Shown here: piece after piece, positions 500 through 63,962 of the stretch
Layout of the letters: the number at the start of each line of letters is the position of its first letter
Position numbering within the stretch: position 1 is the stretch's first letter
Origin: Candidatus Omnitrophota bacterium
GTDB lineage: Bacteria > Omnitrophota > Omnitrophia > Omnitrophales > Aquincolibacteriaceae
Direction: 5' to 3'
Length of the DNA: 63,962 nucleotides
Assembly (NCBI GenBank): GCA_903884815.1
Contig: CAISGE010000065.1
Location: forward strand, 1 to 63,962
The notes under the pieces: model-generated
Databases searched by the model: none
The model's input: the letters and a program-made list of their open reading frames with translations, nothing else
Told to the model about the DNA's origin: nothing
Made by a program: the position numbers and the translations under genes

Positions 500-562
500 A
501 CGAACTTTTCCCTATTCTGCTCGGTTGAGTATTAAATGTCCCGAAAGAAAAAACTCAACTTC

Positions 563-931: not shown

Positions 932-963
932 TGAGATTCTCCTTTGTTCTTGTTGTAATAAAA

Positions 964-3848: not shown

Positions 3849-3872
3849 CGCTTCCCCCGAGGGATAATTATA

Positions 3873-4253: not shown

Positions 4254-4298
4254 TCACCTCAAGCAAGAATTAAATTGTCAGGGCCTGCGACAGGATTC

Positions 4299-4327: not shown

Positions 4328-4337
4328 GGCACGAGGA

Positions 4338-5676: not shown

Positions 5677-5689
5677 AGAAGCCTTTCGT

Positions 5690-9041: not shown

Positions 9042-9086
9042 TGTTGTCTAAATGATGAATTCATCCCTCTTGAATAAAAAGAATCT

Positions 9087-20164: not shown

Positions 20165-20277
20165 AAAATCGATTGAACCTCTCCTGTTTAAATACAGGCG
20201 TATTTATACTCATTCCCCATCATGAAATAAAGAAAAAAGAAGGCGAAATTCTGGAGAGAGAATTCTGCGGGCACTGC

Positions 20278-23200
20278 TTACGCGGCGACTTCGGTCTGGC
20301 GGGTCGCCATCAGCGCATCCAAGATACGCCGTATCGCCTCGTTGGCCAGGTAGCTGCCGATAGGATAGAAGCCTTCGGGCTTTGGTATACTCGCGTACTG
20401 GAGCATCACGTTATCAAATTGGGTTTTGCCGACCCCCAAGGCATATTGCACGAGCCATGACTCCCGCCCAAGGTCCGCATCCGTCAGTATATCGGCTTCT
20501 TTCACCACGAAGACCATAAAGCCTTGCGACTTGAGAATACCGAGCAACTTCTCCAAGTTCGATCCAGCAGGGATGTCTTGAGCAAGGACTTCGAATGAAA
20601 CGTGCTCCGTCCGTCCAGCTTCGGCCAGCTTCTTAAACTCAGGCATTTCCTTAGCAAGCGCCGTTTCATCGAGAGGCTTCCTGCCGGGCTGATCCCCAAG
20701 CCGTTTAGCCGCGCCGGCAACCACGTAGCGCTCAACGTTGATCCTATTAAGCATCGCCTCGATCCCGACACCGGCAGGGATCATGGCTGTGGCCGTGAGT
20801 TGCGCAAAATGTTCCAGGTCGCTGCGCAGACTTTCATCACGGGTATTAATATCGCCCCGCGCCGCGGCAAGCATGGCAGTCCACGATTCCCTCAAAAGAC
20901 TCTCGTCCATCACTTCTACCATGATGGAGAGCGCCTGCATTTCCGCGTCAAGCCGACGACTTTCGGCAAGGATGCCGCGATTCACTTCTGCCTGAACTCC
21001 GTGAATCGCTTCATGGATCACGAAGTCTTTCAATTGAGAAGGCGTCATGCGCTCGACCACTTCGGAATTGAGCACGATCTCACGCGCGCCACCGGGCAAC
21101 TCTCTCTCAAAGCCGCTCTTGCCTTTCAGCAGTGGCTCCTGTTTGACCGTGAACACCTTAATAGGCAACGTGTTGATCGCCTTGATCAGCAGTTTTGGAT
21201 CAATGCGGTCAAGCTGGCCTGGCGTCAGTCTGCCCACCGCCTCGACCGCCAGACCTTTCCAGGCATTCACTTTCGCCGTAGCTGGATCCGCCACTTTGTC
21301 CGAAGGCTTCAAATCGTGGAGTTCCGAGCGTTTTTCATCTGCGGGCACGGTTTCTTCCTCCGCGACAGACGGTTCGGCCTCTTCCTCGATCATTGCCTCG
21401 GGTTTGACTTCCGGGAGCGCGTCCGGGGCTAGATCCGTGACAAGATCCATCATGACGTCTGCCATCTCATTTAGTTCATTGAGGTTGGTAGATTCAAACC
21501 CGCGCAAGTGGGCGTAATAGCCGGTAAAAATATTCGTCACGACTTCGATCTGATTTCCGGAGGATTTGTCGGCCTCAAACTGACCTGTCTGGGTATTGAA
21601 TCGGCGAATATGGTAAAAATCGCCATTGCTATTCTCGGCTATTTCTCCCTTATGAGACTCATCCTGCGCTCCCGACGTCAATCCATCGATCAGCACGCCC
21701 TTCTCACCTACTACATTTGCAATCGCTCCTTTATAGCGCCCCGTGCGATCAACCGGCGCATCGATGTAATGCTCCACGTTCCTGGAAGGCATCGTCCCTT
21801 CCGCCATCGATGTAACCTCTTTATAGGTAACCGCACCTGTGGCGGCATCCACTGATATTTCCTCGACGGAAGACCCGCGACCGTAATCGTCCTTTGTTTT
21901 TTCGGTCTGGTTCTGGCGATCGGCGGAGTAGATGCGCTCGACACCCGACAGGATCTTTCGTAAGGCCTTGTTGAATGCGCGGTCCTGTTCCGCGTGAAGG
22001 ATCCCAAGCCCCACTTCCTCTCCGGTCGTGATAATCAGGCGTATCTCGTTGGTATGCCCCTCTGCGACCAGTTTTCGGATTGTGTTCAGGATAATCGCCA
22101 GGCCGGACCGGTTATCAGCACCAAGGGCCGAACTCGGGTCCTTGGCGCGGACATTCCCGAAAGAATCGATCGTGGCCGCGAGATCGTCCGCAACTTCGGT
22201 ACGCACGTCGATGTGTCCCAGGAAACCGATCGGTTTTCCGGCGGTGGCGGGATCCTTGGGGGGAATGGTCAAAAACAAACCTTTGCCCGGTACTTGTTCG
22301 AATTTGAATTGATTCGAAGAAAGACCCTCGGCCGCCAAAAGTTTGTTGATTATTTCTCTCATCTGGTCAAGAGCCTTCGCTTCATCCCGGACAGAGACTT
22401 GCTTACCGTCCAGAAGTTGGCTGAGGATCGATTGTACGGAGCCCTTATCATCATCTTCAATCAGGGGTTGCGGCTGATAGTTAGCATCCAGATTGAGCGC
22501 CTTATAGGCCGCGGCGCGCAGCGCATCCAGTGAATTATCCACGACAGCATTCGGAGCATTAGCTGTAAGAAAATTGAGCAGCCGCTGATAACCGTCGCCC
22601 GTATTTTCTCTCAGAACGCGTTCTATGAGGCGGGCTTTGGCGCGCGTAAGCTCGTCCGCTGTCATTTGTTGATCGCCCGGTTTTGCGGCTTCCGATTTCA
22701 AAAGCTCGTCGATAAGTTTCGTGGATTCCTCGGTCACTTTACCGGCAACAGTGGTTCCGTTAGGCATCAATTCGTCTTTAAGAGCTTCAAGGATCACTTG
22801 TGCGGTCAACTCTCTGCTATTCTTGGCCGCGTCCATACGCTGCAACTGCTCGGGTGTCAACGCATCCAACAGGACGAGGTCCGAGGCGTTCGTGATATAT
22901 TTCCCGAACCGGACCGCCTGAGGTCCATGAAGTTGATAGAGCCGGACGAAGGAGCGGAACGAGGCCTTCATGATATCCGGATTGAAATTGTGGCCGCGGG
23001 CGTAGCTTTCGAGCTTCCTGTCGATGCCTTCCCAATTGTATGGATGTCCATGCTCACGATCCTCGAGCTGTTCTACGACCTGCCCGAAGAAGTTAAAAAC
23101 TTCTTCCATCATGATCATACCGCTGGAATCGTTCCGGGAATAAAGGTAAGGGCGCGGGTGCGTGACGTGTTTGTATTCATGCTGGGGCGACTGCTTCCAC

Positions 23201-26200: not shown

Positions 26201-29200
26201 ACGCTGCCCCACTGCGCCGTCTCGGCTGCACTGAAACCGGCCCGGGCAAAAACACTATTGTCGATCTGTGACTGTTCGGCAAGTGTCGCAAGTTTTACGA
26301 ACTTTCCGGGCTCAAGTGAGGCCAAAGCGTTCAGAACAGGACCGCTCACGTCCAGATGTTTGACGATCACTTCCCGTCGAAGAGCCTGCTGAGGCCCCGT
26401 CGCTTCAACTTGCGCAGCAAGTTTGGCCAGGGTCTGGACGGTGTCTTCCCGAGGAATAGCGGCCCGGAGCTCCGCAATTTCCTCGTGCGTTAGCCCTGTG
26501 CCGAGCAATTCGTGATAAAGGGTCAGATAGGACTTCCAGTTCTTGAAACCATCCTCGCCCAAGAGAGTTTTCAGCCAACTTGCCTGTGTTTCGAGGTAGG
26601 ACTTCATCTCGTCTTCATAGTTAACGCTGAAGATCGCGAGCCCGCCCTTGAATGTAACATTCAGAAGTGCATTGTTCGTGAGAAGCTCCTTGAGATTGGC
26701 GTCGCGTATCGCGTTGAGCGCGATCTCGATCCCTGCGATCTTGAGTATCCGTTCTCCCGTTTCGGAATTCTTCGTCACGTTGGCCTTGAAAGGCCCGCCG
26801 CTCAATGTCCCAAGGCGGTCACGCCCGGCTTCATCGCGCGTCGCTTGAGCGAGTTCAGCCACAGGTCGGGCAACTTCGCTCGACTGGCGCCCGGCGTCCA
26901 GACCGGCAGGCTTCTCGGCCCCCTGGAGTTGTGGGGCGAATTCCATCGCGAAGCCGAGAGCGATCGCGATCATGGTGTCCGCGCGCTCCTTCACATCCGT
27001 TTTGAAACCGAGATTTCCGAAAAATTGTCCGTCATAATCGCCCCGGAGCTGATTCTCACGGATCGTCGCAAATTCGGCGCCCGCACGTAATTGGACATGA
27101 CCGGCTGTTTCGACCGCGTCTTTCAGAACTTGCTTGACAGACTCGCTCAGATCTTTTCCGGTCCCTTTAAGGAAGGCGTTCAACTGCTCTTTGGCGGTCT
27201 TCGCTTTCGATCCCACAAGCCCTTGCACGGACCTTGGTCCATTCGCGTAATCCTCCCCGCGCTCCATCTCATAGTTCGTCCCGTAATGCCGCATCAATTC
27301 CAAATTGAATTCGTAGAGAATCGCCCGTTCCTTGATGCCCTGGTCCCCCTCAACGAAATTGGCCATCATCATGGCGTCGCGCATCGGGTTGAACATGAGG
27401 GCGAAGTCCATGAGCTGGCCGGTGAGCGACCTCGCCGTAGCGTCCGCTGCTCGGGCGCTGTTCATGGCGTAGCTGAGGAGCATTTGCTCGGCCTGCGACA
27501 GCTTCTTCCAATCCCCTTCATTCTCTTGGAGGCGGTCAAGGATGCCCACGATGTCTTTCGGTGCCGTAGCGTCTTTGGGGCCGTTGTAAAACTTGGAATT
27601 TTTGAGCGAATCCCCATATTTATAGGCTTCACCCGCAGCGGTATCCATCCGAGGTTGGAAGAAATCCCGCCATGCCGCGATCGCCTTGAAATCAAGACCT
27701 CCCAACAGGCTTTCCAGGAACTCCGTGTTGAGATAGATCCGTATCTCCGCGTCGAAGCGGTCGTGCGACTTACCCCCAGCCTTCAGATTGCCATTCTCAT
27801 CTCTATCCGCGAACTTCTTCGCGGTCTCGTCCTTGAGCACCGTCGTGAAGCCCTCCGAGTCAACGTTGCTGCTAGATTCAGCCTTTGCGAGATAATCGGT
27901 GAACGTCGTGGCCGCATCCACGTTCCACGCTCGTTTCGTTGCGTCGCGGTAATCCGCCCAATAGGTCGAATTAAGAATGGTTTCGAGTTCCGATTGCCTT
28001 GCGGATCGCCATCCGGGCTCTCCATTCAAATGAGCCTGAACCAATTCCAGTTCCCGGCTATATTGCGGCCTCCCCAAAGCCGTCAAGATGGCAGAGGCAT
28101 CAGCATTAAGGATCTCGCTCAAGGATCTCGGATCATTATCTAAACCCGTCGCCTCTTTCACCGTCTTCTCAAAAGCCCTCGCCGAGACTTCACCTTTGGC
28201 GTATTCCCTCACCATTGATTCAAAGATCGAATGCATAGAGATCGTCCGGGCAACACGACCCTGGTTTTGCATGAGCATGACGGAGCTGATCTGCGGCGTG
28301 AACGCGGCGTAAAGCATATTGTCCCGTTGATAATTGAAACCGATCAGCGCGTGCTGGGCGGCGAGCACGATCTTTTCCGTGCTTCCCTCGTTGAATTTCT
28401 GTACATTCTTGAGCACGTTATTCTGGCCCTCGGCACTTCCGTCGATAACCATGATGTCTTTTTCTGTCAACCCCAGTTTCAACAGCTCCAACCTTACCAG
28501 CTTGATCACTGTATCGCTCAAGATTCCCGCCAGAACGGATCTCATAGCGTCACCGTGCCCTCTGGCGTCATACAATTCACGGGCAATGAATGCAGCTTGC
28601 TGCTGATCCGATTTACCCGAAGTGTCCCATTGTTTGAGACTAAGGGCCTTGCGAGCTTCTCCGGGAAGTGCGTCCTCCCCGCCCTTTTCCGCAAGCAATT
28701 CGTGAACATAGGCGTCAGCAAAACCGCCTTTTCCGAAGATCACTTCGGTATTCCGTCCCACGATCATCTTCGCCTGCAGCGCGACCTCGGCGACCGTACC
28801 CGACATTCCGTAGGCGGCAGACGCTCCGCCGCCCATGATGAAGAGATCGAACATGCTCGACGCGGTGAGGGTGTTCGTCTTCTCGATGTTTTTCGCGCTA
28901 TTCCGGATAATGTCAAGGCCCAGTCTTTCGTACCGGTTGGTCTCTCCCACTATGGGTCTGATGCTGAGTGCGCTATCGCCCGTCATGTAACTGCCGTCCG
29001 CACCGACCTCGTCCTTGATCCCGAGACCGGCTAGTTCATGGGACAACCCGGCGTCATTGAGTTTGTAGCTGATCGTGATAAGGCCGACCGTGTCCGAAAT
29101 AATCTGGGAATCCTGCTGCTTGCCGTCGGAGCCTTTGGGACGGTACTGGTCGCCGGCACCTCTCCGTATGCCGTTGATAATACCGGCCTCGACATTTTCC

Positions 29201-56700: not shown

Positions 56701-59700
56701 CGGTCGAGGTCCGAACCGTCCAGTTACTTGCAAGACTCGAGATCGATTGAACCCAGTCGCCCGTCAGGCCGCGCACCGTACCGTTATAAGTCTGGATCTG
56801 CATCCCGTAGTCGTAATCGCTGGAGCCGTTCACAAAGGTTTGAGCGCTGTAAGAATTGCCGTAATTGCTGATCATGTAGGTCGTATCGCCCTGACTCATA
56901 CGCAGCATCGGGTTCGGCGAATTCGCGAGGGTCGCCAAATCCTGCGGCAAATTGCTGTAGATCTCGGTCCAGTCTCCCAAGAGACCGTTGATGGTGATTT
57001 CGCCGAGCAGCCGCTCCAGCTGCGTTTCCGAGGCAGCGACGTACTCAAAATTCCCGCCCAGTTTCGAGCGGACCAGGTTCCAGTCGCCCGTGATCCCGAA
57101 ATGGTCGGTGGCAAATTGTTCCTGGCGCGTGGACCGTTCGAGACCAACCCAGTGATAGTATTTCCCGGTGCCGGCCTCGTACCGGTAATCGGTTTGGATC
57201 ACGCCCCCTTTGAGCACATTATGGTTCGCATCGATCGTGTATCCCGCTTGAGCCAGAATAGCGTCCGTGGAGATCTCTGTATCCGTGAAATCCACGTTAT
57301 ACCCGGAGATAATATAGGTCGTGCCGTCCTTTTCGATCTGACGGCTGAATTGCGAACGCTCGATTGCCTGGAAATTCGAATCCAGATTGCTGTAGGATTG
57401 CGTCCAGATTCCGGTGATTCCCCCGATGGTGAGCTCCTTATCGATCTGGAGGGAGTATTGGGTCTCTGCCGTTACATTGAAGGTCGAGTCCAGATTGCCT
57501 TTGACCTCAGTCCACTTTCCGGTCACCGTAAAGGTCGTTCCGTCGCCCCTCGTAAAAGTCCGTGTTTTGAACGATACGACCTGCGTGGAATATTTCAGGC
57601 GCGTATTAGCGGCGGCCGTGAACTGGCTGTTGTAACCGGAGATCGAATAGGTGGTGCGGCCGACGGTGAGCGTCCGGCTGTGTGTCGATCCCGAACGGGA
57701 AGTAAAGTCCGAGTTGAGGTTACTGCTCGAACGCGTCCACCCTGTGCCGACCTCTCGTATCGAACTGCTGTATTTCAGACGGTCCTTCGCAAGATTTAAG
57801 GGATCCTTCATCGCTGCGGCGCTGCTGTAACCGCTAATGGTGACCGTGAGTCCCGTCGCAAGGCCGGCGGCATTCCGGACCTCGAGGCTGCGGCTGAATT
57901 CCGAACCAACGATGGCGCCGAAATTCGCCCCCAAATTACTCCAGGTTTGCGTCCCGTTGCCGCGATAAGCGGTTCCCCGCGCCGGAGCATCGCCATAGAA
58001 GTTCGGCTTCGCCACAGAGTCAAATTCCCGGACGCTAACGCTGAACTCGAGCTGTTGGTCAGCCCCTTGTCCCGAAAAAGTGCTGTTATAGCCAGAGATG
58101 GAATAGGTCACGTCCCCGTCCGTGAAAGACTGGCTGAAGTCGGAATCCCCGGTGATCGCGAAACTCGCATCAAGGCCGCCGTAGTTGCGCGTCCACGTGC
58201 CGCTGAGCGTTCGCAGTTGGTGGGTCAGGGGGTCGATCACCTGGCGAGGCAAGTTGTCGTCGCCCAGGAGGGTCATCGGGACATCCTCCTTGATCGAACG
58301 AAGCGTCAGGTCGGGATTCGTTTCTTGAAAAGCCGCATTGAGACCCGAGGTGATATAGGTTTTCCCGGTTTCAAATCCTGACGCGTCCACAGCAGAAAAA
58401 TTAGTCGAGTATTGAGTCCAGTCAGTCACTTCAAAATTCAGCCCGAGACCGGAAGCGATCTTGGAGAGGCTCCCCTGATACGTGTGATAGCCGCTGGGAT
58501 CGACGCTCAAAGGCACTTGAACCTGCAGGCTTCCCCACTTCCGCTCGGTGACGGATAACTCCAGGTCCCCGCGCGTGTATGACGCGTCCGCGTAACCGCT
58601 GATCGAATAGGTGAATTCGGAAAGGCCGGCGCTACGGGTGAGTTGGAGCGCATAATCCGTCCGGTGACTTGCGTCGTTCAAGACGACAAATCCGGAGCCA
58701 AGATCCGTGGCCATCTTAAGCCAATCGCCGCGCATCCCTTGGTGGATCGTGTTGTGTTCCTGTTCCTGGATCGTCAGTTTGTAATCAAGCGCGGTCTTGT
58801 TAAAAATGCTGTCGTGTTTGGCGTTAATAATGAAGGTGCGACCCGTGAGAGCGCCCGCCGCGTTGCGTTCCTGCATTCGCAGCGAATAAGTCGTGGCAGG
58901 CACGGGCTCGAAACTCGCGCTCAGATTATCCCGCGTTTCGATCCAGTCCCCCTGATGCCCCTCAAAGTCGAAAAAGGCACCTCCCGGAGTAAAGCTCACC
59001 GGGTGATTCTTAGTATCACGGTGCGTGATCGCCTCTGATTGTGTCCAGGCCGTCGCGCCGTTTTCGCGGCTTGCACTACGGGTCGTCAACCCGTCGCGGG
59101 ACGTAACGCTGTAAGATTCGGACGCCAGGGTGCTCCCCGCGATCGTGGAGTTGTAGGTGCGGGTGTAACTCAGATCCTGCCCAGCCCAGGCGGGATCATT
59201 CCAGGTAACCGCCATCGGATGAGCGCTCTGAGCCACCGTCCGGTCGTCCGTCCAGGTGAAACCCTGTCCCGTCACAGATCTCAACGTATTACTGACGGAG
59301 GTCCAAATCCCGGCACCGATCGAAACAAAACTGGACCAGCTAAAAGAGGCTTCCCCGTCCGTCACTGACCGGTAGAACGTCGCTCCCGCAAAAGCCACGA
59401 GCGCGAGCACCAGCTCCGCCGTTTGCGCGGCCGTCAGATCGCCTTGCCGGGCGGTTTCGCGCGCGGCAGTTTCGGCTGAAACTTGGGTTTGGGAACGGTA
59501 AGTGAAGCGATTCGGATCTCCGGCCGCGTCATCCTGCACCGTATGCGACGTCAGACCGTCCATGGACGACCAGGAATAACTGGTCCTGCCTTCTTGGGAT
59601 TCCTGGAAAAATGCAGTTCCGGCAGAAACCGTCACGAGAGCCTGGTGGAGGCTGTCGCGCTGCTCGCCGTCAAAGATCCTGTTGAAATTGCCCGCGCTGG

Positions 59701-62700
59701 CATTAGCCGGAGTCGTCGCAAGATTTTGCTCCATCGCCGCCTGGCTCACGCGTGACTGAACGCTATAGCTTGCCGTCGCGCCATTCGGGTTCGTCAGATC
59801 CACAGAAACCGTATGCCGCGTCGAAGTATTCGGGACGGTCCAGTTGTAACTCTGGTTGGTCATGCTAGAGTTCATATAAAAGTCCGTTTGAGTCGTGTCG
59901 GCGTTAAGCGCGGCTTCGAGAAGGTCGCGCTCCGAGCTCACGGCATCCGCGGGCAAGAGCGCGAGTATCGACCTCACTTCCGCGGCGCTTGCGGTACGAC
60001 GGACGCTATAGGAGGCAGTTCCCAAGGAGCCATTGACCGATAGCGAGTGATCAAAGCGGCCGTTTTCGGTGGTCCAGGTGATCGAACGGTCGCGCCCGTT
60101 CGCGGACATAAAGAATTCTTTGCCGGCAGTGATTGCCGCAGTGAAGGCGCTCCTCTGATTGGCCGGCAGTGACACGCTATAACTTAGCGCGACGGCTTTT
60201 GTGACACGGATCTTTGCATCGAACGACGCTTCCATCACCGGCACCGTCGATCCGTCAATATAGGTCGGCGAAATACTCAGATTGAAGGAAGTCGTTTTGT
60301 CCGAACTGGTCCAGGCAAAGGAGGTCGTTTTGCCGCTCACCATCATCGTGATCTCGGTGTTCGTTCCCTGCAGGCTGACGAGGGCGGCCTTATAACTTTG
60401 CCATTGATACATATCGGCAATATAGGGCTTCCCGGCCGCAACGCGTGAGGCCACATAACGGCTGTGATCGGCTTCAAGCTGAAGCTGAGCCTGTTGCGAG
60501 GCAGGCAGGACAGCGCCATATCCGGCATAGACCGGGGCTGAGGGCAATGCGTAGTTGTTATGCGCCGCATCCACGAAAGGCGCCGAAGATTCAAGAGTGA
60601 CATTGGTTGTGCCGAGCCAGTTTTGGCCTGAGAGGATGGAGATCGTCCCGGAAGTCGGATGGGCTGATGCAATGTCAAAGATAACATTGTCCGCGATATT
60701 CGAAAGCGCGCGGTTCGTGAAAGGCGCTGCTTTCGGCACCGTGAAAGAAGCGTTGGTTTGCTCTTTGTAAAGCTGGCCAGCATTGGAAATATACCCAGCC
60801 GCAAGGCCATCCGCATTCAGAGCGTAATGGGCTGCGCGGCCGACCCAGCTAGTGGAAGCCATCAGATCACTCCCCCAGTCGACCTTCATAAATCGGTTAT
60901 TTTGAGCGAAGGTGAAACTCTTGGCCGTCGTACCGGAATTGCGAAAATTAAACGTGACGCTTCCGTCGGTCAGATTCGTATAAATCGTAAAAGTATCACT
61001 CGAATCCAGAAGCGAAGTTGCACCATCCATCGTCGCCGCTTGATAACGCGCGAGAGCATCACCCGTCAGTCCTCCGGCATAGGCCACAAAATCAGCCATG
61101 GAGATGATCGTTTCGGTCCGCGCGACGCCGGCGGTATTATCCCCCGAGAAACCGGCGGCAGTTCCCGCGGCCGTCAGTGTTCCGTCCGCATTTTTGTAGG
61201 TTGAGGGCAGATCCGCCCAAGCATAGCTGATTTGGGCGGTATGCGTTGCCGGAGCCGCGACGTCAAAACTGAAAGTGGCCGAGGAGTCTTTGTCTCTGTA
61301 AACATAACTCATGCCCCCGGTGGCCTGATTCACCCATACCGAGAAGCTGTCGCCTCCTCCGACCATTGCATTGAGAATGGTTTGTGGAATTGTGACGCCT
61401 GCGGCGGTAGCGTTATTGCGGAACTGAGCTTCCGTGAGCGCCGCCTCGATCCGATAAGCACTCCCGCTGTAGACAATGTATCCCGCATCGATTCCGGAGG
61501 TGGTGAGGCTGTAGGTCGCTGCGCCGGTTTCATAGAAGCCGATCGTTTCATCGTACCCGTAGCCGCTCACCGTAGTCCCCGCGGCGTTCGTAACGGCATG
61601 AGTCGTGGAATTCACTGTAAAACCGGCCGCCGTAATAGCATCCGCCGTAACGGGAGTTTTCACGAGCAAGTTCTGAGGGATAGTCGCCCAGTTGAAATAG
61701 GTACGAGCCACGGAAACGCTCAGGCTGTAAGTTTGCCCGGTCTGGCGGTCCGTGAAACCGTAGCGGAGATTCTCGCCGCTCCCGGTCTTTGTGAAGATGT
61801 CTTGGTCATCGATCAAAGATGCCCTCTGCGGAAGATGCGTCGTCAAATTAATGCTATATCCCGCCTGCTGGCCCGCAGAAGTCAATGCGTAGGTATCGGC
61901 AGCTCCGCCGGTTCCGGGGGTTACGGTATAGAAGCTCGCGTCAAGGTCGGCCCAGGTATAATTCCCGAGAAGGCGCTGATAGGCGGCATAGCCCGGCGAC
62001 CCCGCACCCAAATGCCCGGCAGCCGTCGTAAAATCGGTCATCGAAGAAGGCGTCACCGCCGAAAAATCCCAATCTTCCAGGCGATACACTTGGTCGCCGA
62101 CAAGAAAGAACCCATCGGTGAGCGCCGAAGCGATCAGAACATAATTCCCGGCCGTCCCTGTCCGAAGGGTGCGGTAGTAAGTGCCGGCGCCGGTGGCATC
62201 ATAACGGTAATCCGTCTGCTTCACCCCGGCCGAATTCGTCACGTCGTGCGTCGCGCTATCAATGATCAACCCGGAAGCGAGAATACCCGCCGCGGAAACG
62301 GCGATCTCCCCGGCATAGGCGACGCGGCCCGGCGACTGGCTCAGGCTATAGTTGAGACCGGTCGACGCATCGTGAAAAACATAGCTGAGCGCGTCCCCGT
62401 TCATGGTAAGAGAGAATGTATCATTCGCGTCGTTCATGTCCCCCACAAGCGAGTCGTACAGCGTACGGGAGATCGAACCCGCCGTGAGAAGGCGCTGCGC
62501 GTAAGCTTTGAAATTGTCCGCGGTCATCGGATCCGTGTACACGGGGGCGCCGGTGGTGGCGCTGAAAATATTGTGACTGATCGCGGGTGCCTGGCCGGGC
62601 TGGAGATAAATGCCGTTCGTGTTTCCATCGAATGTATTGAAGCGGACGCTCGTATTATCGTTGGCGCTTAGGATGGCGTTCGCGTAGCCGCGGATCACAT

Positions 62701-63962
62701 TCCCTTCGATCTGGACATTCGAGGGAACCGCGTTCCCTGTCGTGACGATCGAGATGCCGGTGTCGTTCGCGGCGGTCCCACCCGCAATGATGTTATTACG
62801 GACGTAGACATTGTTGCCGGTGACGGTGATCGCCACAGGAGTACCTGTGTCACCGCTATTAAGCGTCAGATTCTGGATCGTGTTGCCACCCAGCGCGAGG
62901 ATCGTCCCATTAAGCGTCACGGTTTCATTGTCCATCCCGAACAGGTCAACGCCCGACTTCAGAGTAAGCGTTCCGGTACTGTAAGTGCCCTCATGGATCA
63001 CGATCCTGTCGCCCGCCGCCGAGGCATTGATCATGTCCTGCAACGTCGTGGCCCCCATGTCCGTGGCATAAAAGTGGCGGATCGTCGTGCCGTCCGAAAG
63101 ATGCTCCGCCGCCACGCGATTCGACGCATCCGTGTCGGTTGACTCCACCGGCAGCGTGGGATCCAAATAACTCGACAAAAAGCCCGAGGTGACCCTCGTC
63201 GATTCGCTGAAGCTCCATCTCACAATGTTGTCGTAGAGGATGTCGCCTGTGGTTGGATTGGCCGCACACAGCACGCCGGTCTGAGGGGCCAGAAAATATC
63301 CCGCAGCCACCAATGCCGCTGCGGTTATCACCGCGCCGGTCGCGTCATGGGCTTCATAAACAGTCCCATTCTTCACCACAGCTGCAACAATCCCCGCTGG
63401 CACCGCTATCACTTGGGGGACTTCATTTACGACACGATTGAGGCCGAAACTTCGCCCCGTTTGCTCATCCTTGTAGCTATAATTGACATCTTCGCCTCGG
63501 ATCGTCATGGAGTAGGTGTCGCCAGTATCCATCATCCCGGTCGCCTCATCGTACAGATCATAATAGTCAGAATCCTCACCAATATTTCCTCCAACCGACC
63601 GGAATGCCGCCATCGTCATCTCGACCGACTCCGAAAAGCTCAAACCCTGTTGGTGATACAATTTCCCGTCGACAACAGAATACCCGGCAGCTCTTCCAGA
63701 ATCCGTCAGTTCATAGCTTCCTTCCGTACCGCTGCGGTAGGAAGCATTAATTTCCGTCCACGCCGTTTGCGTTAGTTGAGAAACAGGGCTGAGGCTAAAC
63801 CGGCGGCCGGATTCTTTATCCGTCCAGCTGTAGCTTGTCTCGGTGCCCGTCGTCGTCATTGAGAACGAATCGGTCGCGTTCAGTTTGGAACTCACCGCGT
63901 CATACGCCGCCTGTTCCGCGGGAGAAAGAGAGCCCGCCGCAACCCTGGACTGGAAGGCCGCA
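41729..63962 (-). CDS. Giant multi-domain surface/membrane protein, 5'-partial (at least 7,410 aa in window)
   Basis: The ORF-track start (63895) is an internal GTG. I translated 63896-63961 in the same frame and found no stop (...AAFQSRVAAGSLSPAEQAAYDAV-SSKLNATDSF...), so the gene continues beyond the window edge. Confidence 0.9.
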   Translation of the reverse strand, partial: AAFQSRVAAGSLSPAEQAAYDAVSSKLNATDSFSMTTTGTETSYSWTDKESGRRFSLSPVSQLTQTAWTEINASYRSGTEGSYELTDSGRAAGYSVVDGKLYHQQGLSFSESVEMTMAAFRSVGGNIGEDSDYYDLYDEATGMMDTGDTYSMTIRGEDVNYSYKDEQTGRSFGLNRVVNEVPQVIAVPAGIVAAVVKNGTVYEAHDATGAVITAAALVAAGYFLAPQTGVLCAANPTTGDILYDNIVRWSFSESTRVTSGFLSSYLDPTLPVESTDTDASNRVAAEHLSDGTTIRHFYATDMGATTLQDMINASAAGDRIVIHEGTYSTGTLTLKSGVDLFGMDNETVTLNGTILALGGNTIQNLTLNSGDTGTPVAITVTGNNVYVRNNIIAGGTAANDTGISIVTTGNAVPSNVQIEGNVIRGYANAILSANDNTSVRFNTFDGNTNGIYLQPGQAPAISHNIFSATTGAPVYTDPMTADNFKAYAQRLLTAGSISRTLYDSLVGDMNDANDTFSLTMNGDALSYVFHDASTGLNYSLSQSPGRVAYAGEIAVSAAGILASGLIIDSATHDVTNSAGVKQTDYRYDATGAGTYYRTLRTGTAGNYVLIASALTDGFFLVGDQVYRLEDWDFSAVTPSSMTDFTTAAGHLGAGSPGYAAYQRLLGNYTWADLDASFYTVTPGTGGAADTYALTSAGQQAGYSINLTTHLPQRASLIDDQDIFTKTGSGENLRYGFTDRQTGQTYSLSVSVARTYFNWATIPQNLLVKTPVTADAITAAGFTVNSTTHAVTNAAGTTVSGYGYDETIGFYETGAATYSLTTSGIDAGYIVYSGSAYRIEAALTEAQFRNNATAAGVTIPQTILNAMVGGGDSFSVWVNQATGGMSYVYRDKDSSATFSFDVAAPATHTAQISYAWADLPSTYKNADGTLTAAGTAAGFSGDNTAGVARTETIISMADFVAYAGGLTGDALARYQAATMDGATSLLDSSDTFTIYTNLTDGSVTFNFRNSGTTAKSFTFAQNNRFMKVDWGSDLMASTSWVGRAAHYALNADGLAAGYISNAGQLYKEQTNASFTVPKAAPFTNRALSNIADNVIFDIASAHPTSGTISILSGQNWLGTTNVTLESSAPFVDAAHNNYALPSAPVYAGYGAVLPASQQAQLQLEADHSRYVASRVAAGKPYIADMYQWQSYKAALVSLQGTNTEITMMVSGKTTSFAWTSSDKTTSFNLSISPTYIDGSTVPVMEASFDAKIRVTKAVALSYSVSLPANQRSAFTAAITAGKEFFMSANGRDRSITWTTENGRFDHSLSVNGSLGTASYSVRRTASAAEVRSILALLPADAVSSERDLLEAALNADTTQTDFYMNSSMTNQSYNWTVPNTSTRHTVSVDLTNPNGATASYSVQSRVSQAAMEQNLATTPANASAGNFNRIFDGEQRDSLHQALVTVSAGTAFFQESQEGRTSYSWSSMDGLTSHTVQDDAAGDPNRFTYRSQTQVSAETAARETARQGDLTAAQTAELVLALVAFAGATFYRSVTDGEASFSWSSFVSIGAGIWTSVSNTLRSVTGQGFTWTDDRTVAQSAHPMAVTWNDPAWAGQDLSYTRTYNSTIAGSTLASESYSVTSRDGLTTRSASRENGATAWTQSEAITHRDTKNHPVSFTPGGAFFDFEGHQGDWIETRDNLSASFEPVPATTYSLRMQERNAAGALTGRTFIINAKHDSIFNKTALDYKLTIQEQEHNTIHQGMRGDWLKMATDLGSGFVVLNDASHRTDYALQLTRSAGLSEFTYSISGYADASYTRGDLELSVTERKWGSLQVQVPLSVDPSGYHTYQGSLSKIASGLGLNFEVTDWTQYSTNFSAVDASGFETGKTYITSGLNAAFQETNPDLTLRSIKEDVPMTLLGDDNLPRQVIDPLTHQLRTLSGTWTRNYGGLDASFAITGDSDFSQSFTDGDVTYSISGYNSTFSGQGADQQLEFSVSVREFDSVAKPNFYGDAPARGTAYRGNGTQTWSNLGANFGAIVGSEFSRSLEVRNAAGLATGLTVTISGYSSAAAMKDPLNLAKDRLKYSSSIREVGTGWTRSSSNLNSDFTSRSGSTHSRTLTVGRTTYSISGYNSQFTAAANTRLKYSTQVVSFKTRTFTRGDGTTFTVTGKWTEVKGNLDSTFNVTAETQYSLQIDKELTIGGITGIWTQSYSNLDSNFQAIERSQFSRQIEKDGTTYIISGYNVDFTDTEISTDAILAQAGYTIDANHNVLKGGVIQTDYRYEAGTGKYYHWVGLERSTRQEQFATDHFGITGDWNLVRSKLGGNFEYVAASETQLERLLGEITINGLLGDWTEIYSNLPQDLATLANSPNPMLRMSQGDTTYMISNYGNSYSAQTFVNGSSDYDYGMQIQTYNGTVRGLTGDWVQSISSLASNWTVRTSTDFGLQLTREELTYNVSGYTSLAYNDPIDKLSLSVSMKRPTNEGLAANLNNLNDPSSASAAVIAGRQATRIWSIDNVENAFTNYQANVLSYSDQLDVSVKGDGSYMISASYFMDAPGTQVLTGAARTDALAFLGTVTLDPDVRAFLDSLRGLNNSNITGDISKITRATAAGTETGYQFTVGTGSAAKIYSLYSSFVPNPDGTTGSQRLVWGFHEQATKNGVTISKVIPGSQGKKHEITGYADLTFTSIESIILQEKLSDGNTSTTSYYIRNISTLTLAQVNAMPEGDAKAALQAALAANPAVGVITKLTDDFNTQFSWTDADNHVHTLTSKDENALSGSTYATNKVWIHSTDATTLWKVKGSEASYTTTIDLGRNVTRTIVFADAAHTRIVGVSDALSGAVINRGMADIRVIQYDASMFSNVTYAQLPTLAASNFVGDSLTVTAYNVDGSIRDKSTYGFPPRAQDIPVGYESVATAGPTVPSGAEFNINLGTPTQDQVLSLLLEDTGSFGVNFATLANGANFTRVGLTNVTGLTEEALCDNNPDTYVFNLADQTPQSFTQLGIVNLSSAQPINQITLDIYTPDGLQHQDFQVEVMKSDGSWVTLTTPVVSAADYKGKLVINFETTTTQHIRISVKNNAPTTATSPRTWLTGITATRQLTEETFPVSLQVFKGYQPGTTTEIWETVGSAATVKAGERFQIPVFQLPATMSGNQRMRVVLSGYPAPLFLQEAELYRAPVAGVTPPSTVSTALATWGETGHQYLTQKALYVGGRGFELQLVQLNVIKVNGVEVVDTASEYFYEDNAGNLKNAQEAIGQHWQLRMSEMRDLSGYEQRGMIPVGTLTGSALSSWIAERSTQPLGLDTSERSVVTVVMADAYTANNWVTNEWETNTYDLRAYGGSADPGVVAYSVDFGATTDAKLLSLEYEAPAGAQLLIKVYDTSSTGATLTTFKSYTMTSPGQLINMAAGLKGIHKVEISWANHASFSSSQAVMLNGESQTGTAFTVYKDVFGVGVSGASSAVSRSLFSDWVNLVDEPVLDFTLSGNSVRTIAMSAAGSNFSTVSEATPILTGSSIVYSADFSYTATSTNWQMAVANQYAAFGSGGSLVDRVGIALKNGKFYIQGYNVPGLTNNSDVLVTGLTPTVGKDYTVEFSLVSGTTDTLQIFLYEKGTTKPLTATKTITGLNWNAIVVQSKLTSGAAVTLSNFLQKTDGKTVEPKIVDPATVTVTTPTVTYNLGVPMRIRNGDDSSAAGYHDIALSRFHDSNGYYYKILVDGKPIENTPGHPEYDYYYYDPFDDKPENVSFDLSHPGELVLKIGDRDVYRGSNAGWSKAQFVGDLGTGTILLGDIEATAYQQSFEPLNLNFGNTLYARKFDITVSNISAVAAATFNVEVCATISCSANSSDWKQIGTISLDAGKETTQSFTLSGDLAALAGEHQVRIVTENSALSGLLNVTHVGVATGWSDASQTAYAQTKFNNGALIQRQYFRGNGQGQDYTVYYDTDGSVKTYQKAVYLVGTQFATNDSICAFLHYYPDGAIDAQAVGTQPDDLLAKIQLTNVYAGVGQAMGLSAKEQPLVTQLATDATFQQLLTNATSNNQVAKFGMQILASADVTRSLPPATVLTDSQTQTFDTLAGIAPVTPLLYNVNFLTPANATVTPIDSSVMNPSVMIGGAATTNSSVWDILALGYDPDSYTYLDAVGEPVPVARITLNAARMMDTVGVEFGPQPNLSYGYKIMVAGTDGVFTEVSPAGATGNGTAENISFAAREVKYIEIWAARVGTSHSRVLIQSVTAKLMGVSSGPFPAPASGQTNYAPDVSVAQGVQFGSGAVVVQGTATQPDLILGDIQTLKNGFSTELDFTMSASGRDDWIGFDNGLNPSDEHYRAFILRQGDLPLDGNSADTYSARTTAGFYDYTGSDTTSRWNAVGDLFTVDKNKTYTLKAEVVHGWLMISFGEKGKPETFHTLYTAEVKDDSWSELRWGAFSAKGSVSGTTTSGTITITELRTSVPSGSTVSTFDGALSLAPLPTAPLIPVELGSETNDYINNGANYATLVESTLATPQVIDTVTVTLRGDYSGTPIIAIAGSDGNYRDVTPSNFPYAPGVPVSISFSAQQVKYIRVSAAPNDYDVPLGLMSVTAQYFGVSSLPFAGPGNIQNVTGYTPPAGVATAVGVAFGGGVAVVQGSAVVPELILGNVQSLVNDLSMSLDFTMDALGKNDWIGFDNGLNPQDKNYQAFVLRQGDVATDGNIYNGLNATGMVGFMQYSGAATTPTWIPKDNQFAMDPAKTYTLQAKVKDGMLMISFGEKGKPSSFRNVYSVEVGDDTWENIRFGAFADAHGKVTISEVRIDSPLAFQASPIFEERLSTRSYNYYDSATGAMQRTEDFKSVWQATGSTEGFVFQKERVTYYRDGGDRISYIVNYKDGTVPGTRVPDTYSVYVYDERAGLNGSSTALTRIDEYTASGEIDVVNAIRGPPVAMNDRDVLIHTTFFNTSAEYAAMNVVGSDGKTELQRLGQDYYDPAVYGAKAVVVQDYKLVVTPSPESGLLLSQDLINSSLINNGLMVAAYGRTFQVYDSRTQALKRSDLYSTTFATPTSTVTATTPGAPPVGLRGTVMGSSVSTTSGGPWTANGTSIWSSWGGAVSYTMDFGAQASDWALQISTSNYHDKPVWWAPFGISVLVDGVKVGDISTSATATDEATLSFSKALSGTHQVTLSWAGQAPYYVRGSGNDLENWLGINSVRLWGATPESVGPTYTGSQEYLSQQTFYRPDGNVDYTERIDYVQTPGSTSPYDIQSEVTRTQSYYYEDGVQPPIITHQVSRANGYITSAVYFNTGIELARAGRVSLPWIDLQTDTPPSGKYGVLAVQSLDVGKDLHSDKFETAMLGATVSELHYGTDGILDRTDRYSFSQSEGKQLDSSTFYKADGVSISRIERQDEYNRLATIETYVYGTGLLSDRILYVETQSLNFTETVDPAHLAQTPPVTYGAAVWVVTNRAYYDYSASGSARQVATVQQPSGIRSTYAFDPHGVLVSITDVHRNGQILSRTFFADGKRFETFHYGLDQSHVQTTVYKYDRYGALRSTTMTDFSTLHTVVADLAGAKGLEYRTGFTEYDRSGNVWATTLIDTNEWGAITTTVQNHLTVSSANDLTQSTVVIYTDLLGNRVLQYSWSAYEARIGAAHTEFNYVTDSYGRVMSSTKREPSSNGATYTTYYATDYVYNGTDDIVGWTDTAAGSHTSYQTRLTLANNRMSSVSKYRSVTGTTTSGWSAGTTSAWASDRQIKAQQEAARSAQVRMKELKKISKQVESLVKNADAALAGTTDAAAISKIYSDLSTQLRRLSSRAERLGVDVGTNAAYMLKAVAVYLDSSNIKKGFTMSVLDALGNFARGDQTALVIDQFGTNLEGGTVLIFVATSSTQLNAQGVLQRTYIGYAPETRSNYATMLRTFSRADPSRVITETIWGLQVTQKRQTSVETRHYNYDGDKLLSVDRQIKVKTKSGSGIFGSTSTYTRKSVVFFNEDYARSYAAANNLTLDKVGFKNGVFEGGEHVTSEKTKVSGGILGQIIMAIIAIIVSVISWGAATPAMAAMFGTYGAAMSAFATAISTVLGVSMPMAATIVGGIMGAVVRAIGTYLSTGSLSAALTTLGVGVLTSIVSTWATANLNDFLSNTDFGKWLGSLSTPTNYSFFGAMVQSFVPNAIVGGILGGIAAVVQGKSFFAGMLGGIVMAAVGAVIGAIAGSLKQLGTVGKTPTNLEPTPAQKNLGFGSFSDISEKGGWGAIMQGIGRRLLTDVLIPQVIDAALKKSPNDAGLTEKSLWDTVLSDGLKGGFSAAFGGMYDAQFGGASFGAIDFAAAFLSGFASGAQSAFYSESLITIGGEKWGQALAGLLLTPIQTLIQSLTTPSKSFDAQKGAKELKEHGITEEDYKNNRVVTLRDGVQVRLSYDEQHGWMQTIISTNLSINPVITMEAFAMLVTQIGLIGEAAPSVLNQLIDREATKADKEPKNITNVRVDQSREDFASIEYENVRLDGFKDEISLGMRGVREDGSKVDLLSQKDIAALNEIGRELSAKLGASVDLSIGDHLVAFGNMLQQGLAGLLGDQVSFDAKMIRFNVAEFSYKGETFTNVAFEVTSDSVTSFYKDLGTDWIVKSGDMGSLLDLMVGIRDLAKELGITNFMTQFRDALDPTSKGAALLILFGDRLQSMLKAGQSVSANFKMYHEKGDRDLNVRLTWTAKDVTYEFTAFGKDGAQIDVKGIVGNTREALHDIKAIADLALDFNLNFIAANAKDLIGFGDALQSMLGKGENGLYAKEVTITFYRNGVKFGDFTFTSNSVSFQGVRLAGAKGFIDIAGKTDGMKNALASIQTLEQFASRLDLTNVGDMQKLSQFVVQNFASLNLSQLAIKFYLADGSLFGSFQFDPEGGTFKDVKIAGKNGSFLNLNGAFAMNEQGVAGVFSKVDKIQKEVASGNYDLGDRKDVSKLSSFIFKNILMPELAGAEGLVTTEAENVGRGVIGISIFEKNGNLLGDFELLLKQEGGKYFQELRMSNVSVMGKNGSSMKFGGTMRQEMAGEDSGATLMGAAFANIDTVRNIASKFNLFNYSVSVNKDGSFAFPPDGAVAFGKALADAFQSGQFALMTHLAPGFYANSKEVFAVFKEALGDKVIEFMDVTLVAADGGKIPWSGKADSVPEAVSEINTLKAAAATHKTGNLSENLVLFRDMLNAGASNQQIAEATTRLLSALPGNVLLDVLNSAGQVIGKTGFIRQANGAALPFCVLNLDKPGSEIFQYRDGKGWQTKTIERDQVLKDINAVNTAKQYGGDQIKENTITSLKDSPELLNLLLNTAMGLGIIKYKQGIFLGDALKPIVDVIYVPATFAKNGSLLKNSFAAIADGSSLKVSVGGGKFQSVGTSEEVLKTVKELGAVGANLLGTKENPILGDEIRKMNFTLGGTLVEEALRNFILTAANQFGLTQFYDTALFGGGEESRRGPAHQILRQEARAECGVCRGQ
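41809..41815 (-). other. G7 (plus-strand C7) homopolymer at which the two giant ORFs change frame
   Basis: Coding strand as given: ...ctt ttc ggc ggg ggg gaa gaa tct cgg..., running to a TAA 26 codons later with an Arg-rich tail. With one G fewer it reads ...ttc ggc ggg ggg aag aat ctc ggc gcg gtc cag ctc atc aaa tat tac gac aag aag ctc ggg cag aat GTG gag tat..., directly into the downstream ORF. Confidence 0.85.
45500..46080 (-). other. Transmembrane-helix cluster 1 (giant protein, upstream ORF)
   Basis: GGILGQIIMAIIAIIVSVISWGAA (about 46000-46075), AMFGTYGAAMSAFATAISTVLGV, MAATIVGGIMGAVVRAIG, LTTLGVGVLTSIVSTWA, AIVGGILGGIAAVV, FFAGMLGGIVMAAVGAVIGAIAG (45541-45600). About 5-6 helices by eye. 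Confidence 0.7.
46250..49650 (-). repeat. YD/RHS-like repeat region
   Basis: Many matches to the YD pattern (Y.YD..G.(L/V)): YKYDRYGALRS (47461-47520), TEYDRSGNVWA, YVTDSYGRVMS, YNYDGDKLLS, YAFDPHGVLVS, FYRPDGNVDYTERIDY, FYKADGVSISRIE, YYRDGGDRISYIVNY. Confidence 0.55.
49680..51810 (-). repeat. Tandem duplication of a supermodule of about 340 aa (discoidin/CBM-like beta-sandwich plus concanavalin/LamG-like domain)
   Basis: Copy A: ...VKYIEIWAARVG...VQFGSGAVVVQGTATQPDLILGDIQTLKNGFSTELDFTMSASGRDDWIGFDNGLNPSDEHYRAFILRQGD...GWLMISFGEKGKPETF. Copy B: ...VKYIRVSAAPND...VAFGGGVAVVQGSAVVPELILGNVQSLVNDLSMSLDFTMDALGKNDWIGFDNGLNPQDKNYQAFVLRQGD...GMLMISFGEKGKPSSF. DNA similarity is still visible (gcctttttcgccaaa.gagatcatgagc at about 49805 and about 50850). 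Confidence 0.8.
52300..55230 (-). other. Series of beta-sandwich, carbohydrate-binding-module-like domains (discoidin/F5-8 type C-like, CBM6/35-like, ConA-like)
   Basis: Examples: ...INQITLDIYTPDGLQHQDFQVEVMKSDGSWVTL...QHIRISVKNN (54740-55230), AYSVDFGATTDAKLLSLEYEAPAGAQLLIKVYD...HKVEISWANH, and FSYTATSTNWQMAVAN...GKFYIQGYN...DYTVEFSL. Fold class assigned by sequence pattern only. Confidence 0.5.
56560..58700 (-). repeat. 'TY.ISGY' repeat region
   Basis: Recurrent T(Y).(I/V)SGY(N/A/S/T)S...(L)(K/E)(Y/F)S..(V) blocks alternating with G(D/I)W(T)..(Y/K)(S/G)NL.S.F........S(R).L blocks. EFTYSISGYADASY at 58561-58620, RTTYSISGYNSQFTAAANTR at 57601-57660, LTYNVSGYTS at 56641-56690. Confidence 0.7.
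59300..63962 (-). repeat. Degenerate N-terminal repeat array with signature (S/T)(Y/F).(W/F/Y)(T/S/R/K)D....G..(F/Y/H)(S/T)(L/F)(S)
   Basis: SYSWTDKESGRRFSLS, NYSYKDEQTGRSFGLN, SYVFHDASTGLNYSLS, RYGFTDRQTGQTYSLS, SYVYRDKDSSATFSFD, TFNFRNSGTTAKSFTF, SFAWTSSDKTTSFNLS, SITWTTENGRFDHSLS, SYNWTVPNTSTRHTVS, SYSWSSMDGLTSHTVQ (59521-59580). Spacing is about 100-150 aa. Confidence 0.7.
62540..63070 (-). other. Right-handed parallel beta-helix (PbH1 / pectin-lyase-fold-like) domain
   Basis: TTLQDMINASAAGDRIVIHEGTYSTGTLTLKSGVDLFG...GNTIQNLTLNSG...GNNVYVRNNIIAGG...SNVQIEGNVIRGY...SVRFNTFDGNTNGIYL...ISHNIFSA. Periodic N.(I/V)..N coils. Confidence 0.7.

Follow-up and report, generated by a model that had tools for sequence, protein, structure and literature searches.

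A giant gene of an Omnitrophota bacterium that appears as two reading frames in one assembly

Giant genes of the Omnitrophota encode proteins with many transmembrane (TM) helices and divergent SecA_DEAD domains, neighbour genes resembling those of type II secretion systems (T2SS), and have been proposed to carry cis-acting SecA-like domains for self-export (West-Roberts et al. 2023, bioRxiv 10.1101/2023.11.21.568195). Proteins of at least 10 kAA number 5,761, of which 80% are sequence singletons at 30% identity, and in a 916-protein catalog 15% were Pfam-dark and 94% membrane-targeted (Nielsen & Lui 2026, bioRxiv 10.64898/2026.06.07.730766). The type example of the class is the giant protein of Velamenicoccus archaeovorus, and members reach 85,804 and 147,155 amino acids (aa); RHS-like β-structure, a secretion system of more than ten subunits encoded upstream and pilZ genes directly downstream have been described. 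The class is recognized but functionally unexplored, with no member of demonstrated mechanism, and its main open question is the export route of such proteins and the role of their internal ATPase. Here we describe a giant gene on the minus strand of a 63,962-nucleotide stretch of DNA (the window; positions 1–63,962 of contig CAISGE010000065.1, assembly GCA_903884815.1, Candidatus Omnitrophota bacterium).

The original prediction, made from the sequence of the window, assigned the locus to this class, in agreement with both published descriptions. Points of likeness are the phylum, a single open reading frame (ORF) of more than 10,000 codons, many predicted TM helices, a P-loop ATPase of helicase type, binding modules of extracellular type, a mostly unannotated and unique sequence and, less clearly, genes of T2SS and type IV pilus (T4P) type in the neighbourhood. 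At 16,347 aa, the intact product exceeds the size criterion of Nielsen & Lui (at least 10,000 aa) and falls short of that for ‘giant’ in West-Roberts et al. (more than 30,000 aa).

One gene divided at a run of guanines

The coding locus is defined by the following features.

20278..41751, minus strand: ORF1 of the open-reading-frame listing, 7,157 aa, GTG start
Stop at 41731–41729, no stop up to 63961, minus strand: ORF2, 7,410 codons, open at the window end
20278..63962, minus strand: visible part of the giant gene, at least 14,560 codons once the frame is corrected
41809..41815, minus strand: run of seven guanines on the coding strand (G7; C7 on the plus strand) at which the frame changes, from the sequence and the homopolymer reading

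This region had been read as two consecutive ORFs within at least 43.7 kb of minus-strand coding sequence. Its extent is borne out, and the division into two is corrected: both frames belong to one gene, of 16,347 codons where intact, which in this assembly carries a one-base frameshift in the G7 run. ORF1 lies in the +1 frame relative to ORF2 and overlaps it by 23 nt, between the apparent ORF1 GTG (41749–41751) and the apparent ORF2 stop (41729–41731); the first GTG of the ORF2 frame is at 63895. Six guanines instead of seven fuse ORF2 and ORF1 (...QFYDTALFGGG followed by KNLGAVQLIKYYDKK...), giving ...QFYDTALFGGGKNLGAVQLIKYYDKKLGQNVEYVAV... around the junction and ...ALFGGGKNLGAVQ... as the junction-spanning peptide of the fused product.

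A look-up by MiaB, the product of the gene immediately downstream, recovered this locus from three further public assemblies, which are 100% identical to the window over the comparable 16–21 kb. In each of them the gene 5′ of miaB is a single product: one is complete, at 16,347 aa, inside a 90-kb contig, and the others, of at least 14,509 aa and at least 8,417 aa, both run off contig ends. The junction lies 7,157 codons from the stop, and all three call lengths extend beyond it. Because the intact product has 16,347 aa, the full gene measures about 49 kb, with about 1,787 codons (5.4 kb) of its 5′ end outside the window. Searches of genome contigs with the junction protein, and of JGI metagenome contigs with a junction DNA pattern allowing a variable G run, gave no match.

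Features around the junction speak against a genuine division. The ORF1 frame continues open for 31 codons 5′ of its GTG, no Shine–Dalgarno-like sequence precedes that codon by eye, no promoter-like sites were found at the junction, and terminator signals there are not above chance. The 26-residue tail of ORF2 past the G7 run contains 2 Cys, against 6 in the other 7,384 aa. A pair of protein repeats lies on both sides of the junction (aa 7212–7348 and 7439–7564 in ‘fused’ numbering, which refers to the frame-corrected visible protein of 14,560 aa). Two more G/C homopolymers occur in the gene, both in frame, at 31705 (G7, plus strand) and 35331 (C8, plus strand); these are additional candidate positions for frameshift errors or variants elsewhere. 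One error or variant in a homopolymer can disguise a giant gene as two merely huge ones.

The giant locus is a real, native coding region. At a stop frequency of 0.042 per codon, one stop per 24 codons is expected by chance, and the probability of 7,157 open codons is approximately 1e-133; the 43.7 kb hold a single disruption. Relative synonymous codon usage (RSCU), correlated across codons with that of 18 housekeeping genes of the window, gave r = 0.91 and 0.92 for the two giant frames, compared with 0.20 and 0.03 for the same DNA read out of frame, and GC content is level across the window. Collapsed repeats, a check named with the original prediction, are an unlikely source of the long frames, because neither tandem repeats nor dispersed ones (direct or inverted) of 30 nt or more occur in the 43.7 kb.

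Domain organization of the giant protein

From the N to the C terminus the visible protein comprises a β-rich region of about 5,900 aa, TM cluster 1, about 3,700 aa with repeats, TM cluster 2 and a helical region of about 4,200 aa, an order in which the earlier description was broadly right. The first approximately 5,700 aa are enriched in Thr, Ser, Gly, Asn and Tyr and the last approximately 4,000 aa in Ala, Leu, Glu and Lys; the first 7,177 aa contain only 5 Cys. The N-terminal and middle regions carry the following features, with Pfam searched in 1,000-aa tiles.

62546..62926, minus strand: NosD-like right-handed β-helix, ORF2 aa 346–472 (Pfam PF05048, E 4.5e-6, 26.7 bits against a cut-off of 23.6)
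56519..59002, minus strand: repA array of a divergent module of about 120 aa, fused aa 1654–2481, no family match
54809..55045, minus strand: F5/8 type C (discoidin, galactose-binding-like) module 1, fused aa 2973–3051 (PF22633, E 1.4e-6, above cut-off)
50360..50575, minus strand: F5/8 type C module 2, fused aa 4463–4534 (Pfam E 7.2e-6, 27.0 bits, just below the cut-off of 27.8)
46082..48364, minus strand: putative YD/RHS-like stretch, by eye, directly before TM cluster 1, fused aa 5200–5960
45512..46066, minus strand: TM cluster 1, about 5–6 Gly/Ala-rich hydrophobic segments (Kyte–Doolittle), fused aa 5966–6150
36511..38790, minus strand: repB, seven tandem copies of about 95 aa, ORF1 aa 988–1747 (fused 8391–9150), no family match
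32596..34434, minus strand: TM cluster 2 with a conserved membrane-adjacent module, ORF1 aa 2440–3052 (Kyte–Doolittle and relatives)

The ‘adhesin-like repeats and β-helix’ noted earlier in the N-terminal region stand as far as the β-helix is concerned, through the NosD-like match; the repeats have no family assignment. Iteration of local hidden Markov models (HMMs) defined repA as eight copies, mainly at fused aa 1670–2440 and also at 548–651, and repC as seven copies of about 150 aa at fused aa 28–1112 and 2201–2337. None of repA, repB and repC matched Pfam, and the repA and repB profiles found no relatives in the PDB. The ‘many’ β-sandwiches resembling carbohydrate-binding modules reduce in the same way to the two F5/8 type C matches, the second of which sits within a duplication of about 270 aa at 46–50% identity (fused aa 4151–4763). 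Inspection by eye shows YD-like repeats (for example TYAFDPHGVLVSI, VYKYDRYGALRST and HYNYDGDKLLSV), with five Y.YD..G-type motifs observed against 0.9 expected. The only Pfam RHS_repeat match is negligible (E 0.35) and lies past TM cluster 1, at fused aa 6338–6361, so that the YD/RHS assignment of 46082..48364 is a weak one, made on motifs. Over the whole visible protein, the tiled search returned beyond the NosD, two F5/8 and M42/M28 matches only weak ones to ResIII (E 0.05), SprT-like (E 0.04) and RHS_repeat.

Both predicted TM clusters were recovered as groups of hydrophobic helices. Cluster 2 contains about 6–9 hydrophobic segments (Kyte–Doolittle, fused aa 9843–10330), counts and topology being approximate, and is followed by a membrane-adjacent module that keeps R..HD..LGQ.L, DN..F and L(V/I)PQ motifs in relatives. 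Beyond it lie the modules of the C-terminal region.

28207..30204, minus strand: predicted superfamily 2 (SF2)-type ATPase, ORF1 aa 3850–4515
26692..27819, minus strand: conserved helical module, function unassigned, ORF1 aa 4645–5020, colinear in all long relatives
22732..23814, minus strand: gluzincin-like module, ORF1 aa 5980–6340, with QS..HE..H and HEYKH at 6191
21472..22239, minus strand: predicted M28/M42-like aminopeptidase module, with GHID at 6512, GADNRSG at 6544, TGEEVG at 6576 and YAHLRG at 6746
20281..21153, minus strand: C-terminal module with a second HExxH (HEAIH at 6913), an α/β region and a ...VAA end

The relatives of this region were collected by a HMMER pass with ORF1 aa 3701–4900 over 1.84 billion representative proteins, which matched ORF1 of the window itself and nine others, eight of 4,454–6,210 aa and one a 609-aa ATPase fragment. 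These nine share 27–38% identity with the ATPase-region query (HMMER) and 24–31% over BLASTP blocks, which are colinear at ORF1 aa 2575–3050, 3770–4505, 4645–5020, 5980–6340 and 6867–7157 and correspond to the end of TM cluster 2, the ATPase, the helical module, the first HExxH module and the C terminus. BLASTP found no similarity to the relatives N-terminal of TM cluster 2. A scan of species-representative genomes yielded 11 loci with the family ATPase, and every title that names a taxon is of Omnitrophota; their ORFs, of at least 5,700–6,800 aa, reach beyond the 10-kb flanks examined. In two metagenome-assembled genomes (MAGs) that serve as GTDB representatives (L009, about 2050–2150, and L015, about 1680–1780), stretches of about 100 N within the giant genes create false gene boundaries. 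Because ORFs leave the flanks and N runs interrupt them, the relatives probably exceed the roughly 6,000 aa of their database entries (for example P0127). A homologue search with the ATPase segment, and then with the family alignment, was empty, the family apparently not being retrievable from that index, and the HExxH-module alignment found no relatives among metagenome contigs. Selection acts on the C-terminal core, which is colinear with eight long relatives and one ATPase fragment and whose ATPase motifs are invariant.

The ATPase had been called SecA-like. Its identity as a P-loop ATPase stands, through a GSGKT Walker A motif at ORF1 aa 3879, DEVH at 4017, an insert of about 300 aa, GMSGT at 4315 and QNQGRVAR at 4495, of which GSGKT, DEVH and QNQGRVAR are invariant in the family alignment. 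Among ten family members, Pfam matched Helicase_C in five (best E 3.6e-6), ResIII in four (2.3e-5), a T1R_D3-like family in three and DEAD in one (4e-7); the domain of the window protein itself matched ResIII alone (E 0.05). The motif order follows that of SecA: GxGKT, DEV(D/H) followed by P..φIφ(S/G)G, a large insertion, GM(T/S)GT and QxxGRxGR. By eye, DEVHxxVDPxYFIVGG in the giant protein parallels DEVDSILIDEARTPLIISG in SecA, and ...SMFDLF...GMSGTA parallels ...FQNYFRLY.KLAGMTGTA. The insertion occupies the position of the SecA preprotein cross-linking domain; it is about 300 aa long compared with about 150 in SecA, and neither a helical scaffold nor a wing domain was recognized.

Direct comparisons did not place the domain in the SecA family. 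Pfam SecA_DEAD (PF07517) had no match in the window protein at E ≤ 10 and in none of the ten family members at E ≤ 1, and alignment by hhalign of the family profile with Escherichia coli SecA (sequence verified against PDB 2fsf) reached a probability of 1.6%, with the P-loop alone aligned. AlphaFold2 models were built from shallow family alignments, and Foldseek found no match in the PDB at E ≤ 1e-3 for that of the ATPase (predicted local distance difference test (pLDDT) 60). SecA chains rank 4–6 (E 0.04–0.08, TM-score about 0.13), a ranking that does not discriminate SecA because SWR1, FANCM and Dicer-2 stand above it. The ATPase and C-terminal segments had no match among PDB sequences by phmmer, and the ATPase family profile gave weak XPB, Sth1 and AAA matches only. 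We thus regard the domain as a predicted SF2 ATPase with a SecA-like motif layout.

Two metallopeptidase-like motifs had been noted further on, and both HExxH motifs are conserved in relatives. In the gluzincin-like module the H, E and H residues and an EE pair about 21 residues on are invariant in nine sequences; it had no match in Pfam or among PDB sequences, and its AlphaFold2 model (pLDDT 65) had no Foldseek match in the PDB at E ≤ 1e-3, the best being a collagenase T peptidase domain (E 0.13, TM-score 0.30). The second HExxH has a weak SprT-like match (E 0.04) and is present in eight of the nine long proteins, that of the window included. Between them lies a cassette that varies in the family: M28/M42-like in the window protein and P0122, GNAT acetyltransferase in P0126 and P0129. 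That of the window is predicted to be an M28/M42 aminopeptidase, with metal-ligand motifs in order and matches to Pfam Peptidase_M42 (E 1.7e-5, 24.5 bits against a cut-off of 23.2) and M28 (E 1.7e-3), both covering part of the profile (ORF1 aa 6529–6631).

In P0124, P0125, P0126 and P0128 an H-N-H-P-(P/A)-H...S..D motif lies about 400 aa past the first HExxH module. A JAB/MPN reading of this motif was not used: two relatives scanned gave no Pfam match, and the window protein lacks the motif there. The family also has a common end. Eight of its nine long members (20281–20310 in the window; P0122–P0129), at only 24–38% identity to one another, terminate in Ala-Ala and one in Ser-Ala, with ...TEVAA in the window and DIAA, ASAA, QVAA, VAIAA and EASA in relatives. 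Such ends resemble an ssrA/ClpX-type degron (...LAA).

Source organism and genomic setting

The source is an uncultured freshwater Omnitrophota bacterium, in line with the original prediction. The best MiaB relatives share 77–78% identity, all eight with an NCBI organism name are Candidatus Omnitrophota/Omnitrophica MAGs (61–71% identity), and the related loci whose titles name a taxon are likewise of Omnitrophota. Run ERR4195937, which carries the locus, is a metagenome of Lake Alinen Mustajarvi, Finland (PMC10244341).

The neighbouring features, all downstream of the giant gene, are as follows.

18740..20164, minus strand: miaB, 113 nt downstream of the giant gene
134..4253, minus strand: T4P/T2SS-like operon, 16 kb downstream, behind 17 housekeeping genes
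3873–4253, minus strand: CheY-like receiver, in this operon
2178–3848, minus strand: PilB/GspE ATPase with an MshEN domain, in this operon
964–2178, minus strand: GspF/PilC, in this operon
563–931 and 134–499, minus strand: two paralogous pilins with G|FTLIE, in this operon

The spacing and shared strand of miaB are as first described, and rph and lipA are also present. After the giant gene follow, in order, miaB, a polysaccharide deacetylase-like gene, orn, a HAD phosphatase gene, mgtE, dusB, the gene of a 612-aa coiled-coil protein, NAD(P)HX epimerase, lipA, an aminotransferase gene, a glutamate racemase-type gene, queC, a radical-SAM gene, rph, Ham1 NTPase and the small pilus/secretion operon. 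The ‘nearby’ T2SS/T4P-like operon thus exists, with PilB/GspE, GspF and pilin genes; its nearness is relative, at 16 kb and beyond the housekeeping genes. The MshEN domain binds c-di-GMP. The tandem pilin or pseudopilin paralogues (121 and 122 aa) have nearly identical N-terminal halves (KGFTLIELIMVIVLLGLLA...) and diverged C-terminal halves. Scans for consensus promoters and terminators before miaB found none above chance.

Two further observations concern the housekeeping genes. The 612-aa protein (11198–13036, minus strand) has no Pfam family and shows coiled-coil (SMC/Rad50-like) similarity only, yet its position is conserved in all close relatives (526–612 aa). The rph ORF as listed (4954–5808, minus strand, 284 aa) overlaps the upstream radical-SAM gene (5690–6403, minus strand) by about 120 nt, and its Pfam domain begins at residue 55; translation of rph probably starts at a codon within the listed ORF.

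Upstream of miaB the close relatives (L004 1–5896, L005 1–7385 and L006 1–11383, set against 20165–20400 of the window) differ from the window and from one another. In one lineage a large serine recombinase gene, overlapping the miaB start, is found with a Fic-like gene and RhuM; in the other, PFOR, NrdD/G and a Cache-domain gene occupy the position. One MiaB-close genome, GCA_964482725.1, carries two distant giant-gene paralogues elsewhere (L008 and L013; 26–27% identity). Because the relatives differ here, the place of the giant gene beside miaB is lineage-specific, and the site looks like a variable region or integration hotspot; the host-like codon usage argues against a recent foreign origin.

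Proposed topology, alternatives and comparison with known systems

On balance we favour one native Omnitrophota gene encoding a multi-pass membrane protein with a binding arm, a probably cytoplasmic ATPase/peptidase part and a possible role in attachment. Composition, domains and hydrophobic segments suggest that an N-terminal arm, with about 5,900 aa visible and about 1,800 aa outside the window, precedes TM cluster 1; this β-rich, Cys-poor arm is probably displayed outside the cell for binding, and the two clusters of hydrophobic helices would anchor the protein. GNAT acetyltransferases, which depend on acetyl-CoA, bear on the other end of the molecule: the last approximately 4,200 aa, including the ATPase and all three peptidase-like modules, are most likely cytoplasmic, because the ATPase needs ATP, relatives carry GNAT cassettes and no hydrophobic segment follows TM cluster 2. 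The cis-encoded ATPase may power threading or remodelling of the part of the protein that is exported; processing of the polyprotein, or of its partners, may fall to the peptidase modules, and the whole protein may serve attachment to a host or prey, perhaps together with T4P-like machinery. An attack of the peptidase modules on the prey envelope, as first suggested, is doubtful, because these modules and the ATPase share one side of the membrane and no hydrophobic segment separates them.

Several points weigh against this picture. The giant protein is known here from its sequence alone, most of which has no family match, and the ‘adhesive arm’ rests on three modest Pfam matches; the N terminus, with any signal peptide, lies outside the window. 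The topology comes from a hydropathy scan in which the number of helices per cluster is uncertain, and the 3,700-aa middle region may therefore lie on either side of the membrane. The structure models are poor (pLDDT 60 for the ATPase and 65 for the HExxH module), homology to SecA was not shown by Pfam, hhalign or Foldseek, and the substrate of the ATPase could be nucleic acid rather than polypeptide, because the closest HMMs are those of nucleic-acid translocases (ResIII and the type I restriction R subunit). Genomes whose MiaB is most similar (75–78% identity) keep the gene order 3′ of miaB and have no giant gene 5′ of it, and the T2SS-like operon, 16 kb away behind housekeeping genes, may be unrelated.

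A bolder extension, which we put forward as unlikely, is that the conserved C-terminal approximately 4,500 aa amount to a machine not yet described and confined to the Omnitrophota, joined in cis to giant ectodomains that evolve fast and whose export it would power or process. Its parts would be the TM cluster with the R..HD..LGQ module, the SF2 ATPase (not demonstrably SecA), the helical module, the QS..HE..H module, the swappable cassette, the second HExxH and the ...AA end; its turnover could be tied to an AAA+ protease through the ssrA-like ...VAA tail, and the G7 run could switch the engine on or off.

That the G7 run is a biological slippage-prone switch, acting by phase variation, transcriptional slippage or programmed +1 frameshifting, is a quite unlikely alternative in its own right. 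It would yield either the full-length protein or an N-terminal product of about 9,200 aa without TM cluster 2 and the ATPase/peptidase part, and it would account for a break that falls exactly within a homopolymer while the remainder of the 43.7 kb is open, and for the presence of both versions in public data, as a split 7,157-aa entry (P0121) and as intact calls in other assemblies. One surplus homopolymer base is, however, also what errors of assembly or sequencing typically produce; all three other assemblies are intact, and the other runs of 7–8 G/C in the gene (31705, 35331) are in frame.

The C-terminal core of about 4,500 aa might instead be an effector delivered into prey or host, with the N-terminal part and TM clusters as binder and conduit, as in MARTX or Rhs/polymorphic toxins. 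We consider this improbable. The C-terminal enzymatic cassettes do vary among relatives (M28-like, GNAT or other), YD-like motifs do precede TM cluster 1, and the core is conserved while the N-terminal parts are not. Polymorphic toxins, however, keep the N-terminal delivery part and vary the tip, and here about 4,000 aa with the ATPase are conserved; no known toxin domain, autoprocessing domain (CPD or Rhs aspartyl protease) or immunity gene was found, and miaB directly follows the giant gene.

An arrangement of two true neighbouring genes, one for an exported giant adhesin and the other for a membrane ATPase/peptidase, with translation coupled through the 23-nt overlap, is very improbable. 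The window as assembled reads so, and split architectures may exist in the family: the L010 ORF of 4,536 aa, with stops before it, lacks a TM cluster and begins shortly before the helical region, and P0124 and P0125 look similar to it. The other assemblies of the same population nevertheless have one ORF, ORF1 combines a GTG start lacking a Shine–Dalgarno sequence with a frame open 31 codons further upstream, and the ORF2 tail looks out of frame. The apparent two-ORF splits in L009 and L015 were rejected as evidence for two genes, being runs of N. An explanation of the long frames as misassembly, by a chimeric join or a collapsed repeat, or as a decaying pseudogene is hardly credible: one frameshift is present, against 43.7 kb with that single disruption, no repeats to collapse, uniform and host-like codon usage, independent assemblies 100% identical where compared, and C-terminal blocks conserved in distant relatives.

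Among described systems, the giant protein fits the Omnitrophota giant class by its sequence, as a mostly Pfam-dark member of neither the Archaeovorin nor the Dockerin-type subtype. Pfam tiles showed none of the Archaeovorin set (HEAT, glycosyltransferases, methyltransferases, glycosyl hydrolases and NUDIX; E ≤ 1) and no dockerin/TSP3 repeats. It differs from the class in its modest size of 16,347 aa, in the lack of a detected SecA_DEAD or SecA preprotein-binding domain, in being followed by miaB rather than pilZ, and in its small PilB–PilC–pilin operon 16 kb downstream, the upstream side lying outside the window.

With Rhs/YD and Tc toxins it shares, by eye, degenerate YxYDxxG motifs in a β-rich stretch of about 700 aa, and also a modular build with enzymatic modules further downstream; it lacks an Rhs core or aspartyl-protease motif, a VgrG/PAAR or Tc partner and a toxin–immunity pair, and its YD-like region leads into hydrophobic helices instead of a toxin tip. 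Giant type I-secreted RTX adhesins (LapA, SiiE and MpIBP) are likewise very long, repeat-rich and Cys-poor, with lectin-type modules. The giant protein has neither GGxGxD repeats nor Big/cadherin arrays, no adjacent ABC/MFP/TolC genes were found in the 20 kb downstream of its gene, and its multi-pass TM clusters and ATPase/peptidase part are lacking in those adhesins.

Against this background the locus offers an example that is clearly bounded, free of repeats and of workable size (16 kAA). No relatives were detected for its N-terminal two thirds, and its C-terminal third belongs to a small family (9 relatives in 1.84 billion representative proteins), whose core, consisting of the membrane module, SF2 ATPase, two HExxH modules and AA tail, offers 300–700-aa targets for expression and assay. 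What it adds to the described systems is modestly new: this small conserved C-terminal core family with its ...AA end, and a giant gene that is split at a homopolymer in this assembly.

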